DNA of 64,000 bases. Source: Spizellomyces punctatus DAOM BR117 (taxonomy: Eukaryota). The position numbers were made by a program, and so were the translations under genes. Shown one piece after another: positions 14,803 to 21,864 of the stretch; position 1 is the first letter of the stretch; each line of letters starts with the position of its first letter. Below the pieces are notes generated by a model. The model was not told where the DNA came from and searched no databases. It saw nothing but the letters and a program-made list of their open reading frames with translations. Location: assembly GCA_000182565.2 (NCBI GenBank), contig KQ257450.1. One strand, written 5' to 3'.

Positions 14803-15249
14803 CGTTGCGCGATGTTTTGAGTTAAGTGTTGAGTGTCAGATAAACTTTGTGCTCTGTCACACATCTGTCACATATTACGTTATGTGGCTTATCGTAGCGC
14901 GAAACCTTACACGACCTTCCCAAGTCTTGCATTCAAATGTCGCTGAAACGTTGACTCCACTTTCTCTTAACGCCTTTTCCACGGAACACTTGAAAGTCGG
15001 TCATTTGGAGACAGCTAGGTATCAATTTTAGACGATCGAGAGATTTGGTCGTACTGCATTGGATTACCATTTGGCGTCCTCCCTGCTTTAACCATACTTG
15101 CGCGCTGTCGTTTTTCATATAGTTGCAGCTAAAGGGTTAGCTGTAAACTATCTCAGCACCTCCCACCGAATACTGTAAAGTTGGCGCGTGCAGACTCCTA
15201 GGTGTTAAAATTGGGATACTTAAGGTCATCCAGTGGTCAAGTGCACACC

Positions 15250-16593
15250 ATGTCATCACCCAGACCCCCAACGTCATCACCCAAACCCTCAACAAAACGC
15301 TGCACAAATCGCAAGTCCATTATCATCTCTTTCGTAGTCAGTCTATTACTATTGGCTCTCATACTGGGTCTCTCTCTCGGTCTGACCCGACCGAAGAACA
15401 ACGACAGTACCGGGACACCCATGACAACGTATTCGGGTTTACAGTCTGCCAAAGGCTCGGTCGACCTTGTCGCAAGCAGGTTAACGGGCGTACGATCGTT
15501 GCTGTTTGACCGCGCGACTGGGAAAGTTCTAAGTCTTGTTCGAGGGAAGCAGCAGGTTGTAGCGATTGCAGTAGTCCAGCCGTCAACTGCGGATTTTTCG
15601 CAGAATGTGATTCTCGATGTTTCGTCCTTAAATATTGGACTCAACCATGGTATGGCAATACACGAAGGGTACATCTACGCCAGCAGCGCATCATCCGTAT
15701 ATCGGTGGAAATATTCTGGCCAACCGATCGCGAAACCCGGTGAATACGAAACGTTTGTTAGTAACATTGACAGCGGCTTCCTACCTGGCGACACTGCAGC
15801 AGGGCACATTACTCGCACAATTCTCTTGGATTCCAATTGGCTCTATATCTCTGTAGGAAGCCTAGGTAATGTTGACCCGACCCCGTTCCGCTCCCGAATT
15901 CGGCGGGTGCCGTACAAAACATACAACTCGACCGCATTCAATTTCCAAACCGCAGAAGTATTTGCTGATGGTGTGCGCAATGCTGTGGCCATGGCTTTTG
16001 ATTCGAGAGGAAAGCTGTGGACAGCGGTAAACGGCCCGGATAATCTCGCGAGGCCCGATATCGGCAATGATATCGTTCAAGATAGCCCTATAGAACCCAT
16101 ATATCTGCTTGAGCAGCCTGGCCGTTTTTACGGCTACCCGTACTGCTTCACTCTAGGGAACGTTTCGGGGTCATTTGCTACAGACCCCTCCGTAGGCACA
16201 CAGTACGCTTGGCCGGACTCTATGAATGACGGTACCCACACCGATGCATGGTGCCGCGATCCTGCTAATGTGGTAACTCCCTCTGCCATGATCCAGGCCC
16301 ATAGTGCGCCGCTTGACATGGAATTCGGGCCTTCAGGGATGCTGTATGTGGCATTACATGGTAGTTGGAATCGGAACGTTCCAGCGGGATACTCTATCGT
16401 ACGCCTACCATTCAAGCCTGATGGATCTCCGACAGTGGACCGTGTGACAGATCGGGTGCTTTGGTTGTCGGACCAATTGTGCCCTGCAACTTCCGTAACC
16501 ACATGTTTCAGACCAGCAGGATTGGCCATCGTGGACAAGTATGTGTACGTCTCTAGTGATGCTACTGGGGAGATAGTCAGGTTTGAGTATTAG
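15250..16593 (+). CDS. Intronless soluble quinoprotein glucose/sorbosone dehydrogenase-like (AA12-like PQQ-dependent beta-propeller) with N-terminal TM anchor
   Basis: GHITRT, GSLGNVD, GVRNAV, YGYPYC, AHSAPLD, HGSWNR and CFRP motifs; hydrophobic IIISFVVSLLLLALILGLSLGL near the N-terminus. Confidence 0.85.
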   Translation: MSSPRPPTSSPKPSTKRCTNRKSIIISFVVSLLLLALILGLSLGLTRPKNNDSTGTPMTTYSGLQSAKGSVDLVASRLTGVRSLLFDRATGKVLSLVRGKQQVVAIAVVQPSTADFSQNVILDVSSLNIGLNHGMAIHEGYIYASSASSVYRWKYSGQPIAKPGEYETFVSNIDSGFLPGDTAAGHITRTILLDSNWLYISVGSLGNVDPTPFRSRIRRVPYKTYNSTAFNFQTAEVFADGVRNAVAMAFDSRGKLWTAVNGPDNLARPDIGNDIVQDSPIEPIYLLEQPGRFYGYPYCFTLGNVSGSFATDPSVGTQYAWPDSMNDGTHTDAWCRDPANVVTPSAMIQAHSAPLDMEFGPSGMLYVALHGSWNRNVPAGYSIVRLPFKPDGSPTVDRVTDRVLWLSDQLCPATSVTTCFRPAGLAIVDKYVYVSSDATGEIVRFEY

Positions 16594-17331: not shown

Positions 17332-17490
17332 CCGACCGACCGACAGGCAGGCAGGCAGACAAACATGGCAGGCAGGCAGACAAACATGGCAGGCAGGCAG
17401 ACAAAACACGGCAGGCAGGCAGACAAAACACGGCAGGCAGGCAGGCAGGCAGGCAGGCAGACAAAACACGGCAGGCAGGCAGGCAGGCAG
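17332..17490. repeat. Compound microsatellite: (CCGA)3, then (GGCA)n blocks interrupted by GACAAACAT/GACAAAACAC
   Basis: Directly visible: (GGCA)3-GACAAACAT x2, (GGCA)3-GACAAAACAC x2, (GGCA)7-GACAAAACAC, (GGCA)5. Confidence 0.95.
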
Positions 17491-17773: not shown

Positions 17774-20635
17774 ATGGCGACGGCGGCCACTGCCAGCCCT
17801 GTACCGGGTGACAAGTAAGCTCCCTCGCTGCCTTCCCATCCGGAAGATTCCCTTCCAACTATTAAATTACAATTTCCCTGTAGCAATTTTTTGACTGTCA
17901 CCGATCCGCGAACGAACACTACCATCACCGTTCCTATCAATACCAAGACCAAAACCATTCCAGGAACCGCTTTTGCACAATTGAAAATAACTCCTACTAA
18001 ACCGCCATCAGACGATCCCACCGACAAGGTACCGATTCGCCTGTATGATCCGGGATTCAAGAATACCACTGTGTGCAGGTCAAAAGTATCCAAAATCGAC
18101 CCTGACAATGGAAAATTGTACTATCGCGGGTACGATGTGGAAGAGCTAGTGGAAAAGAGCACGTATTTAGAAGTGGCATATCTTCTTATTTACGGAAATC
18201 TACCCACCAAGGTACTTTTTCCTGATGTTGCGGAGCTCATTCCCAGTTGACATTGACGACTGACGCCACAGGCTGAGCATGAACACTTTACGAAAGCTGT
18301 GATGACCCATACCTATATGCATACGGAGCTGGAACGACAGGTAGGCGAAACATTTAAGTGATGTCTGATACCACCTGGATGCTGTTCTGACCTGTCTGAT
18401 CTAGATGCTGACTTTTCGATACGATGCGCATCCCCATGGAATGCTTATTGCTACCATTGCATCACTCTCTACTTTTCATCCAGAAGCCAATCCGGCTCTT
18501 CATGGTGTCGACATGTACATGATGCCCAAGACAGCTCCTGGCAAGGAATTGTCTGCGGATGAACAGGAAAAAGCTGAAGCTGTTCGCTCAGTGCGCAACC
18601 GCGCAATCTTCCGTATGCTCGGTAAAGTTCCAACCATTGCTGCGAACGTGTACCGTCATAGATTGGGTAAGGACCATGCTGTCTGGATTGGAACAGTTTG
18701 TACTCCAACGGAGACCTGTAATATCCGTTGCATCCTTACCTTCAGGGCGACCATACAACCATCCGATGCCAAATTGTCTTGACTATTGTGAGAATGTTCT
18801 TTACATGATGGACAAGGTGTGCCTTTTGTGCTAAGGAGTCACGCGTACATTCAAACTCAACTCGTGGAGCTGTTAGCTGAACGAGCCCAATTTCAAACCC
18901 GATCCGCGTCTCATTAAGATTCTAAACTCCATGTTCATTTTGCTGGCGGGTAAGTGCCTGGACGTCTGTCCGAAGTGGGTTTCTCGTTGCTCAGTTCGTG
19001 ACCCACATAGAGCACGGCAGTAATTGCTCGACCGTTTTAATGCGACACTTGATTTCATCGGGGGTCGACCCATACACGGCTCTCTCCGGCGCAGCTGGCG
19101 CTCTGTTTGGTGAACGAAAAGCGTGAGTTTCAGCTGCGCGGATTTATGTTCCTTGGGTTCACCAAAGAAGACAAGGAGTGAATGAACGGTTACTTTATCC
19201 CAGGTCAGCGGTGATTGACATGTTAAAGCAGATTGGGAAGGTCGAGAAGATCCAGCTTTTCTTGAGTATGGTCAAAAGAAAAGAGACAGATGCGGCAGCC
19301 CTTTACGCCTCAAATGGTTTGGGCGGTGGGAAGAAAGCTACGCAAAAGAACACCCGCCCGCTCCGGCTTATGGGTTTTGGCCACAGGATCTATAAAACTG
19401 GTGATCCACGAGTCCGAGTTGCAAAAAAAGTGGCATTTGAGGTAAATTGTTTGATAGCTACTGGATCCTGGCGATGCATACTTGAGTGTTAACGTATATT
19501 TTAGCTGTTTGAGCTTATGGGCAAGGACAAATTGGTGGAGATAGCGATTGCTCTGGAGGAGGCGGTGATGGGGGACGAATGGTTTGTGCAGGTACATGTT
19601 CTACCGTTTCCCTTTGTCCAGTTTTCTGCAATGCCACTAACATCTGCGTTATTTAGCGGGGCCTCTATGCAAACATCGATTTCTGGACTGCCATTGTATT
19701 TCATACGCTGCGATTTCCTCCAGACATGTTCCCTGTATTGATGACCGTTCCAAGGTGTGTCTATAACGTCCCGTTGTTTGTGTACGACGATCCCTAAAAC
19801 AGTTGCAATAATGTAGAGTGGCGGGATTCATTGCAAACTGCTTGGAGAGCCTTGACGATCCAGAGTACAAGATATATCGTCCACGACAGGTATGATTCAC
19901 ACCGCGAGTGGAATCGCCAGAGTATCTGCTAAGGAGCCAGGCTTGCTAGATTTATATCGGAGAGACGCTCCGCAGCTATGCGCCAACCCGCACAAGGCGA
20001 CTGACAAACGTAACGCCCGCCTTGGAGGCACAGTATGTCCGAAGTGACCCGCTTGCAGCTAAGCGACGGAATGTCGCAGGTACACATTGAGCCATATCGT
20101 TGGATCGTGCCCGATTTACACTGACCATTCTCTCAGATCCAAATACTTTAGCTGAGGTGGACGATCTTATTTCACGTACCCAGAAGTCATTAGAAGATCT
20201 GAATGACAGGCTACTGGAAATTGAAGGTGCAGGAGTTGAGGTCGTAAACGAGAGCGGTATTCGTAACCGCTTCAGTACTTGGGTCGCTAGTCGACTGTTT
20301 GGAAACCCGAGCGGAGTGGGGCATACGATGCATCTGACAGAGGTAAGGCCCGGGTCCCTCTGCTGAGACTTTTCGTATTCTCACGCGGCTTTATGCTGTA
20401 AAAACAGCGACTGCATCAAACCCAAGCCGAGCTCACTCGACTGCTAGATCGGCAACGTGAGATCCTCGTCGCCGAAACGGCCGCAGAGGAGCCAGCGAGT
20501 GAGCCCCCACGCCATCTGCCCGTGTCCGCTGATCGTCAGCTGGGTGCCAGGTCTCCTGATTTGTCATCTGGAAGTCGCAGTCCGAGACCAATCTTGGTAC
20601 CAGAACGGCCAGGGTCAGCTCTGGGCAAAAAGTGA
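17774..20635 (+). CDS. Citrate synthase homolog (plant peroxisomal/bacterial type II-like), probable pseudoenzyme with C-terminal extension, multi-exon
   Basis: [82 protein letters not shown] is replaced by GERKAS. Confidence 0.92.
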
Positions 20636-21302
20636 AACTATTCTAGTTAGTATGTTTATTTCATAAACGCTTCAGTTATGGTAGCAAAATGGCACATGTG
20701 TGGCAAGGTCATCGAGCATTTGTGGAAAGCTGGGAATTCTCTGCGAACTCTACATGAAACCGACAATACAAGCCATCTGCCTTGCAAAATTCATACTTCT
20801 TTAGAACATAACTGCACGCTTACCTGGGTAGAGGTAGTTTCAATGACCAGATCCAGGGTTGTGGACACGCACCAGTATCCTTACGTCAGTGAACTTCATT
20901 TGGAATCCCATCATTGCCATTGGCCGCACATGTCCATCATGCTACATCAGCCGATGAAATCCAGGACCAATAGTAGCTGCAATTGGAGCGCATAAACTTG
21001 ATATGAAGGATATTGGACGACGCATGAATCTATTCCGACTTTCAGTGATTCGATCTTAACTTGGCCTGCGAGGCAAAGGTTACTGTGTGACGATCTGCTG
21101 CGCCAGCGACAATTTGCATTCTATGACAGCCATAGCCCAAACATAAAATGGCAAGTTGTAAAATCGGGTGCTTCATAGCTCATCGCCACCCATCATGCTC
21201 CTCAGTGCCCAATCTGCTTATATAATCCTACCTGAATCGCGTTCCGCAGCATCAGATCTTGTTCACCAGATCCTGTCCCGCTGCCACAGAAAAAGCAACA
21301 GC

Positions 21303-21864
21303 ATGACAGACTTGGGCAGCACGGCCAACCTTGCAGCGCCAGACAAAAGCGCCGGAGCAAGCGCCGACAAAGGCGAAGACAAGGACCCCAAGAAGAATTT
21401 CAACTATCCACTTGTTAGAGTAATGTCTCCCATTTTTTGCATGCATTCTTGATGCCATGCCGTTAATTACCGCATTCTATCTTTGATAGGTTTGTGATAT
21501 GGCAGAGGAACTTCGAGTGGAAGCTGTAGATATGGTGGTAACAGCAGTAGAAAAGCATCCAGGAAATTTTGAGGTCCGTGAACGTCCATGCCTACTGGAG
21601 CGTCCGTCAGTCATAACTAATTCGCGGAATAGGCTGCAGCACAAAATATTAAAGAGTTAATGGATAAGAGATGTGGAAATTCTTGGCATGCTGTGGTAGG
21701 AGAAGGTTACGGATTTGAAGTCACACATGAGATGCGGAACTTGCTTTACATGTACTTCGGTGGAAACCTCGTATGTCTCGCCGTACGCATTTTGAGTGAT
21801 CGCGTCCCCGTCTCATGACTATCCATATTTGCTGCAGGGTGTGCTCGTGTGGAAAGCCTCCTAG
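21303..21864 (+). CDS. DNAL4: Axonemal dynein light chain 4 (LC8-like), 4 exons
   Basis: NYPLVR/VCDMAEELRVEAVDMVVTAVEKH...IKELMDKRCGNSWHAVVGEGYGFEVTHEMRNLLYMYFGGNL/GVLVWKAS*. Confidence 0.93.

Follow-up and report, generated by a model that had tools for sequence, protein, structure and literature searches.

The genome of Spizellomyces punctatus DAOM BR117 (assembly GCA_000182565.2) harbours, in the 64,000-nucleotide stretch of contig KQ257450.1 analysed here (the window), a citrate synthase (CS)-like gene whose product lacks the first catalytic histidine. In the modelled exon structure the gene occupies positions 17774-20635 on the + strand, comprises 14 exons and encodes a product of 671 amino acids (aa). 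It is expressed and is an ancient paralogue of the non-mitochondrial CS of eukaryotes (glyoxysomal, type II-derived). The protein is not a canonical CS, and the database label 'citrate synthase' probably does not describe a working enzyme of that kind.

The loop GPLHGGAN of active relatives is replaced by GERKAS, which is 3 residues shorter and aligns Lys318 to the catalytic His. The shortening shows when the protein is aligned with active homologues or with the plant enzyme 9x0i, and the His is present in 41 of the 41 active homologues compared. The loop codons G315 (19109-19111), E316 (19112-19114), R317 (19115-19117) and K318 (19118-19120) all lie within exon 7, contiguous with AAGALF, and only the following residue (GC/G) straddles the junction. 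The loss of the His is therefore independent of the splice choice. The spliced exon 7-exon 8 mRNA of the gene model is predicted to read GERKASAVIDML across the junction, after which exon 8 continues with G-SAVIDML; retention of intron 7 gives GERKA and then an immediate stop (TGA). Intron 7 has no His-Gly-Gly coding potential in any frame, and none of the 52 in-frame, stop-free GT/GC..AG introns between 19050 and 19260 produces a loop of the His-Gly-Gly type by alternative splicing.

An earlier note on this DNA had claimed that 19123-19203 is spliced out to leave a loop without the His and 3 residues shorter, which agrees with the gene model and the alignments, and that the intron holds no HGG and runs into a TGA when retained, which is borne out by the enumeration of frames and splices. 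Its account of the other motifs was also correct. LAEHG stands in place of the HADHE/HAEHE of active homologues, and the motifs GFGHR (H379, 19382-19384), DPR, NIDF (D435, 19678-19680), PR (R460) and RPRQ (R483, 19884-19886) are intact, as is the multi-exon frame. DNA contigs of two runs, possibly from the same sample as the assembly, are identical to the window across the loop (0 differences).

With exon 2 as query, a search brought up orthologues of full length (633-745 aa) from about 25 chytrid species, the two Batrachochytrium species among them, and from one blastoclad. Among the 28 chytrid-family rows (chytrid and blastoclad) of the alignment, F-G-E-R-K is found in 25 of the 25 that cover the loop; the G-P-L-H-G-G-A His loop is found in 5 of the 6 outgroup rows (plant, bacteria). 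G315, E316, R317 and K318 are invariant in the alignment of all 20 named orthologues. GERK is thus kept in the chytrid orthologues, a check that the earlier note had proposed, and the alternatives it had named, recent decay or an assembly error, are refuted by the same 25 rows. When 1.84 billion representatives were searched with a profile, 15,289 matched, and a short G-E-(R/N/H)-(K/R) loop is present in 18 of the 151 rows aligned. The named short-loop members added by this search belong to Chytriomyces, Clydaea/Lobulomyces, Homolaphlyctis, Paraphysoderma, Catenaria and Blastocladiella. A transcript of the nucleariid Parvularia atlantis reads GERR with the same deletion, in a gap-free alignment across the loop. 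The uninterrupted metagenomic open reading frames (ORFs) P0132, P0154 and P0266 read GERKST.VI through the position of window intron 7, and thus encode the shortened loop without splicing. The unspliced ORFs P0016, P0018, P0021 and P0026 are interrupted exactly at intron positions of the window gene.

The proteins without the His loop are monophyletic, forming 19 of the 66 rows of the tree (Shimodaira-Hasegawa-like approximate likelihood ratio test, SH-aLRT, 100; stem 0.39), and the GERK clade divides into blastoclads and chytrids. The eukaryote-rich group around the clade comprises 35 rows (SH-aLRT 98), and the His-bearing 'peroxysomal citrate synthase' of Dikarya forms a separate clade (SH-aLRT 100). 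In a tree with more eukaryotes, from a quick search, a red-algal group branches first, then Parvularia, then blastoclads plus chytrids (supports 94, 91 and 92). Evolutionary constraint was judged from tree path lengths and protein conservation. The path between chytrids and blastoclads is about 1.06 changes per site, versus about 0.85 between the active enzymes of ascomycetes and basidiomycetes, the former split being the older one. The comparable path length across an older split argues for purifying selection as strong as that on the active enzymes.

The presence of the GER(K/R) form in zoosporic fungi and a nucleariid, the His-bearing form alone among the Dikarya proteins listed and a possible red-algal sister group together point to an old duplication. 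The age of the clade, which spans Chytridiomycota, Blastocladiomycota and a nucleariid, is a feature that the earlier note did not contain. An active chytrid copy of the non-mitochondrial branch was not seen in the orthologue search with exon 2 nor, when the His-bearing protein of Mrakia served as query, among the best 120 of the 8000 proteins scored. All named proteins among these 120 belong to Dikarya or plants. Nothing found in these searches speaks for the suggestion of the earlier note that the protein may be a regulatory partner of an active CS.

For the comparison of active-site constraint, 26 clade members were set against 41 His-bearing homologues over 357 columns. In the active set, 72 positions reach at least 90% conservation; the clade keeps 49 of these, 5 have switched to another fixed residue and 18 are relaxed. 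The kept positions include L374, G376, F377, G378, H379, R380, Y382, K383, D386, P387 and R388, in the coenzyme A (CoA)/adenine loop and DPR, as well as N433, D435, R460, R481, P482, R483 and Q484. The CoA/adenine loop RLMGFGHR is invariant in the named species; all 20 named orthologues have H379, D435, R460 and R483, and at least 90% of them have R388. The switches are H to L280, D to E282, E to G284, H to K318 and Y to W437. Since all of them lie in active-site motifs, the change amounts to a focused rebuilding of the acetyl and oxaloacetate side of the pocket, with the CoA side and the carboxylate-binding Arg residues preserved.

Relaxed positions include the equivalent of the oxaloacetate-side His238 (pig CS numbering), occupied by His283 in the window, the Asn that follows it and four neighbours of the catalytic Asp. 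A His occupies the former position in 65% of the 26 clade rows and N, S, Q or G in the others, and the oxaloacetate-side motif of the clade accordingly reads LAE(H/N/S/Q/G)G instead of HADHE. The second His is also missing in 4 of the 17 loop-bearing rows that cover GFGH, all of them environmental sequences (P0130, P0134, P0139 and P0266). Textbook accounts of CS, echoed in a preprint (10.1101/2024.11.06.622199), assign the binding of the acetyl group to His274 and Asp375 and that of oxaloacetate to His320, Arg329, Arg401 and, from the partner subunit, Arg421. The claim of the earlier note that the protein probably still binds oxaloacetate or citrate stands in part. Among the ligands, R388, R460, R483 and the His320 equivalent are kept, and such binding may persist; the position of His283 is variable and its neighbours have switched.

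Degenerate His loops were also observed outside the GERK clade, in P0041, P0135, P0138, P0142, P0149 and P0261. A Leptospiraceae protein among them reads GSRESDAN, and P0135 reads GPLGGA, GFGS and NVYFY. The catalytic His seems to have been lost several times across the CS family.

The 13 introns of the CS-like gene are all of the GT..AG type and 57-81 nucleotides (nt) long, and the open frame runs through all 14 exons. Aligned to an independently annotated 671-aa orthologue from Spizellomyces sp. 'palustris' (P0001), the 671-aa model shows 0 gaps and 647 of 671 identical residues, and this gap-free match corroborates every splice junction. The unspliced metagenomic ORFs P0018, P0021, P0026 and P0219 break where window exon 6 ends. 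The features of the gene are the following:

17774-17814, + strand: exon 1, start codon and residues 1-13; the N-terminus agrees with P0001.
17884-18211, + strand: exon 2, beta-rich segment at the N-terminus, as is usual for type II/non-mitochondrial CS; PF00285 begins (63.5 bits).
18272-18340, + strand: exon 3, aligned without gaps to P0001.
18405-18666, + strand: exon 4, with a clade-specific insertion of about 20 aa after HPEANPAL.
18746-18816, + strand: exon 5, from the gene model.
18877-18949, + strand: exon 6, ends with ...FILLA; Leu280 is at the first His position of the HADHE motif.
19011-19122, + strand: exon 7, (E)HGSNCST..., with the remodelled oxaloacetate-side motif and the GERK loop (19109-19120); PF00285, 33.5 bits.
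19123-19203, + strand: intron 7, 81 nt, GT..AG.
19204-19441, + strand: exon 8, SAVIDML..., a clade-specific insertion, then the CoA/adenine loop, H379 and R388.
19505-19591, + strand: exon 9, from the gene model.
19657-19754, + strand: exon 10, D435 (equivalent of the catalytic Asp) and ...VPR, the R460 codon being split by the junction.
19817-19889, + strand: exon 11, R483, the equivalent of the Arg donated by the partner subunit; the predicted dimer interface includes residues 476-498.
19950-20079, + strand: exon 12, the CS domain ends and the tail begins, with a basic RRxT-like site and the conserved SDPxAAKRR motif; no Pfam family.
20137-20342, + strand: exon 13, tail with the first predicted long helix (531-558) and an FSTWV motif; no Pfam family.
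20408-20635, + strand: exon 14, tail with the second predicted long helix (588-624), a disordered end with the conserved PDL(L)xGSxSPR, and the stop codon.
20636-20793, + strand: 3' untranslated region, with poly(A) addition at about 20789-20793 from RNA reads.

The protein contains two internal insertions, one after HPEANPAL and one before RLMGFGH, which active enzymes, Cyanidium and Parvularia lack. It also possesses a conserved C-terminal tail of about 170 aa, a feature absent from the earlier note. In the AlphaFold2 (AF2) model of P0001 (mean predicted local distance difference test, pLDDT, 63.9), helices are predicted at 531-558 and 588-624 and the rest of the tail is disordered. Conserved motifs of the tail comprise SDPxAA(K/R)RR, a helix with the invariant L608 and Q612, and the terminal PDL(L)xGSxSPR; L648 and G651 are also invariant. 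Pfam detected no family on exons 12-14 or on P0001 outside PF00285, and the ESM Atlas had no usable match to tail residues 500-671. A homodimer prediction with two copies of residues 56-500 gave an ipSAE of 0.76, whereas the best of 3 controls scored 0.00. The runs had at least 88% of contacts in common, and the partner pLDDT was at least 84. Of 30 proteins solved as pairs of one chain, 21 attain the ipSAE mark, against 0 of 23 solved as single chains. CS dimers being solved structures, the prediction may reproduce known ones, and the pass shows likeness, not proof. The predicted interface involves residues 311-317 and 476-498, and the model supports retention of the usual CS dimer. Inspection by eye of the N-terminus, the C-terminus (...SALGKK) and the orthologue termini found no PTS1/PTS2-like (peroxisomal targeting signal) sequence.

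RNA reads of run X7, which carries the same species label, cover the 3' end of the CS-like gene at a depth of 58-106 with the first mate on the + strand; about 6 in 100 of the run were read, and the library is strongly 3'-biased. Loose ends with A-runs were found at 20789 (7 reads) and 20793 (4 reads). These 3' reads and poly(A) ends indicate that the gene is transcribed and polyadenylated. The view of the earlier note that the gene is maintained holds, as it is intact, expressed and strongly conserved.

At 19740-19953, the same run shows a small pile of reads (depth 6.4 and 1.9) whose first mate lies on the minus strand, whereas the reads at the 3' end are in sense orientation. It may be an antisense transcript or a library artefact.

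Membership in the CS family is evident from PF00285, which is matched by individual exons of the window gene and by P0001 with 326.4 bits (cut-off 27) over profile positions 1-357. The AF2 model of P0001 has the citrate synthase fold (Foldseek E 6.7e-30, template modelling (TM)-score of 0.78 on the target, to 9x0i). Features of the non-mitochondrial/type II branch are present, namely the grouping in trees and the N-terminal beta segment (strands 16-31 and 83-94). According to Sendker et al. (PMC11615384), the eukaryotic non-mitochondrial CS branch nests within bacterial type II CS. All 20 CS and citryl-CoA lyase models of NCBIfam were missed at their equivalog cut-offs, the best being NF004126 with 360.1 versus 505 bits; these models were built for prokaryotes, and the His-bearing Mrakia protein also falls below the NF004126 cut-off (481.2 versus 505).

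Among solved structures, the best sequence matches are the plant enzymes Arabidopsis CSY3 (9x0i) and the non-mitochondrial CS of Ananas comosus (8qzp), with E 3.4e-114 and 1.9e-110, and both are also the best fold matches (target TM-score 0.78-0.82, 40-43% identity). The N-terminal beta segment, GFGHR, DPR, N(V/I)DF, PR, RPRQ and an extended C-terminus are common to the GERK protein and these enzymes. Unlike them, the GERK protein has GERKxx for GPLHGGAN, LAEHG for HAEHE, two insertions and a tail of about 170 aa versus a few tens. The extended C-terminus of the pineapple enzyme links dimers, according to PMC11615384. The GERK protein differs from glyoxysomal/peroxisomal CS in that, by inspection, no PTS-like signal is seen. 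The Dikarya 'peroxysomal citrate synthase' (P0127 of Mrakia, P0269 of Truncatella and many of Basidiomycota) belongs to the same branch with 45-50% domain identity. However, the Dikarya enzymes keep G-P-(T/S/L)-H-G-G-A-N and HADHE, measure about 490 aa, lack the long tail and form their own clade.

His-less paralogues of red algae (Cyanidium P0136, P0169 and P0202) are sister to the holomycotan clade (SH-aLRT 94). Similar to the GERK proteins, they carry terminal extensions, Leu for the first His of HADHE, Gly for its Glu and a loop that starts with G-E-R, the last three being derived states. Their loop differs in being of full length (GERISGvgk) with Ile aligned to the His, and they have GFGHV for GFGHR, NVDLY for NIDFW and 39% identity. 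With a stem of 1.11, the sister position may reflect long-branch attraction or convergence. Citryl-CoA lyase and the CS module of ATP-citrate lyase belong to the same superfamily, and their chemistry, on a CoA thioester and a tricarboxylate, does not lead from acetyl-CoA to free citrate. Membership of the GERK protein in citryl-CoA lyase was rejected on weak partial matches (51-75 bits versus cut-offs of 193-261), and the protein has the full two-domain type II architecture in place of the short citryl-CoA lyase core. The literature searches made found no description of the GERK clade; the supplementary tree of PMC11615384 may contain such sequences uncommented. The words 'fungi', 'fungal', 'chytrid' and 'inactive' occur 0 times in the main text of that paper on non-mitochondrial CS.

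We tentatively favour, at just short of an even chance, the reading that the GERK protein is a catalytically crippled, ligand-binding oligomer that acts through its tail in a non-canonical way. It would retain the CS dimer, perhaps as part of a larger assembly, and its pocket would go on binding a CoA thioester, a carboxylate or both, with acetyl-CoA and oxaloacetate turned over poorly or not at all. It might serve as a metabolite-binding sensor or scaffold that signals via the C-terminal tail, whether by assembly, by binding a partner or by being phosphorylated. By analogy, the tail could be a much longer version of the dimer-linking C-terminal extension of plant non-mitochondrial CS. This reading draws on the free variation of the His238 equivalent and of the surroundings of the Asp, the loss of the second His in some members and the regulatory look of the tail; in particular, the absence of the second His from 4 of 17 rows fits a function that does not need catalysis.

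Several points nevertheless weigh against a crippled binder. All 20 named species keep the replacement loop, the catalytic Asp and the second His unchanged, and a pure binder would not obviously need them. In principle, the carbonyl of a thioester could be polarised by a Lys or an Arg, and the four members without the second His could be further-degenerate environmental copies. The AF2 monomer is only moderate, with low confidence in the tail, and no partner, localisation signal or ligand of the GERK protein was identified. In the 3'-biased run X7, the RNA depth is about 0.25 at 19098-19204 and no spliced reads mark the 19122/19204 junction, which is thus neither confirmed nor contradicted; run X8 contributed no reads.

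The same invariant residues also fit a repurposed enzyme, which would catalyse a CoA-dependent reaction (Claisen-type condensation, lyase or thioesterase) on other substrates, with Glu-Arg-Lys polarising the thioester and the remodelled motif changing the acid substrate. We consider this the main rival and possible, though clearly below an even chance. It is favoured by the invariance of E316, R317, K318, H379, D435, R460 and R483, the conservation of R388, the kept CoA loop and the 49 of 72 universal CS positions retained, with 5 fixed anew instead of left free. The evolutionary rate resembles that of active enzymes, and in the predicted dimer, residues 311-317 and 476-498 fall at the contact between subunits that completes the active site of CS. 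However, the His238 equivalent varies, the residues flanking the Asp are relaxed and the second catalytic His is gone in 4 of 17 loop-bearing rows. To our knowledge, no CS-family enzyme lacks the first His, and literature searches turned up none. The protein also falls below every NCBIfam CS or citryl-CoA lyase cut-off. The designation as a probable pseudoenzyme in the earlier note holds in that an enzyme homologue has lost its key His and yet is conserved under selection, the general mark of pseudoenzymes, but the invariance of the loop, Asp, second His, three Arg and CoA loop in the named species also fits a repurposed enzyme.

An ordinary, perhaps slow, glyoxylate-cycle CS with Lys318 in place of the His is improbable. 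The protein does belong to the non-mitochondrial CS branch with all other named motifs intact, and an active chytrid copy of the branch appeared neither in the orthologue search nor among the best 120 of 8000 proteins with the Mrakia query. Nonetheless, every one of the 41 active homologues compared has the His, which holds the acetyl group together with the Asp (10.1101/2024.11.06.622199). Moreover, the loop is 3 residues shorter, the oxaloacetate-side motif has changed at 3 fixed and 1 variable positions, the termini show no PTS1/PTS2-like signal on inspection, and Dikarya keep a separate His-bearing clade.

An artefact or decay (mis-spliced model, assembly error or recent pseudogene) is very hard to credit: the 19122/19204 junction is without RNA read support here, but GERK is exonic and a His loop comes back in 0 of the 52 alternative splices, all 14 exons form one open frame with a gap-free match to P0001, the loop recurs in the 25 rows, the nucleariid transcript and the unspliced metagenomic ORFs, and the gene is expressed and polyadenylated with DNA contigs identical to the window. 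Mis-splicing, an intron-encoded loop, an assembly error and a recent pseudogene were accordingly rejected on the orthologue loops, the splice enumeration, the identical contigs and the P0001 alignment.

On a broader view, again possible but clearly below an even chance, the GER(K/R) proteins of zoosporic fungi and nucleariids, perhaps joined by the GERISG proteins of red algae, would have split off very early in eukaryotes from glyoxylate-cycle CS, with the active site rebuilt around an invariant Glu-Arg-Lys and a function unlike that of any known CS relative. This might be a new CoA-dependent reaction or an acetyl-CoA/dicarboxylate sensor that assembles via a coiled-coil tail and controls zoospore lipid and glyoxylate metabolism.

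The label 'citrate synthase' or 'citrate synthase-like' is attached to the GERK protein in about 30 chytrid and blastoclad genomes, including those of Batrachochytrium dendrobatidis and B. salamandrivorans. To enter it in metabolic reconstructions as an extra-mitochondrial or glyoxylate-cycle CS is probably wrong, and the GERK clade corrects the label in many genomes of early-diverging fungi, amphibian chytrid pathogens among them. Among the proteins listed, Dikarya have only the His-bearing form, while zoosporic fungi and the nucleariid hold the GER(K/R) form. The clade represents a natural experiment on the CS fold without the textbook His, in which the Asp, second His, three Arg and CoA loop were kept throughout the history of Fungi and Glu-Arg-Lys became fixed. 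Its novelty lies in this deep, clean departure from the textbook active site; the fold and the system are not new.

Among the search results, over-long entries of 1278 aa with PF00285 and PF00926, of 911 aa from Eruca with two CS copies and of 1166 aa from Cladochytrium (P0010, P0012 and P0294) look like merged gene models. Many metagenomic 'citrate synthase' proteins of 868 aa (P0299-P0312), about twice the normal length, score above 790 bits with a query of one domain and may carry two domains in tandem.

In the neighbourhood of the CS-like gene, a CAGG-rich tandem array at 17344-17490, with a 22-nt unit GGCAGGCAGGCAGACAAACAC in about 6.6 copies, lies about 290 nt upstream of the start codon and may belong to the promoter or 5' untranslated region. 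The upstream neighbour, at 15202-16593 on the + strand, is an uninterrupted ORF of 462 aa with a TrAA12-like domain (PF22807, 112.6 bits). Downstream, a multi-exon gene at about 21314-21770 (+ strand) possesses a dynein light chain type 1 exon (PF01221, 54.6 bits) and an N-terminal extension.

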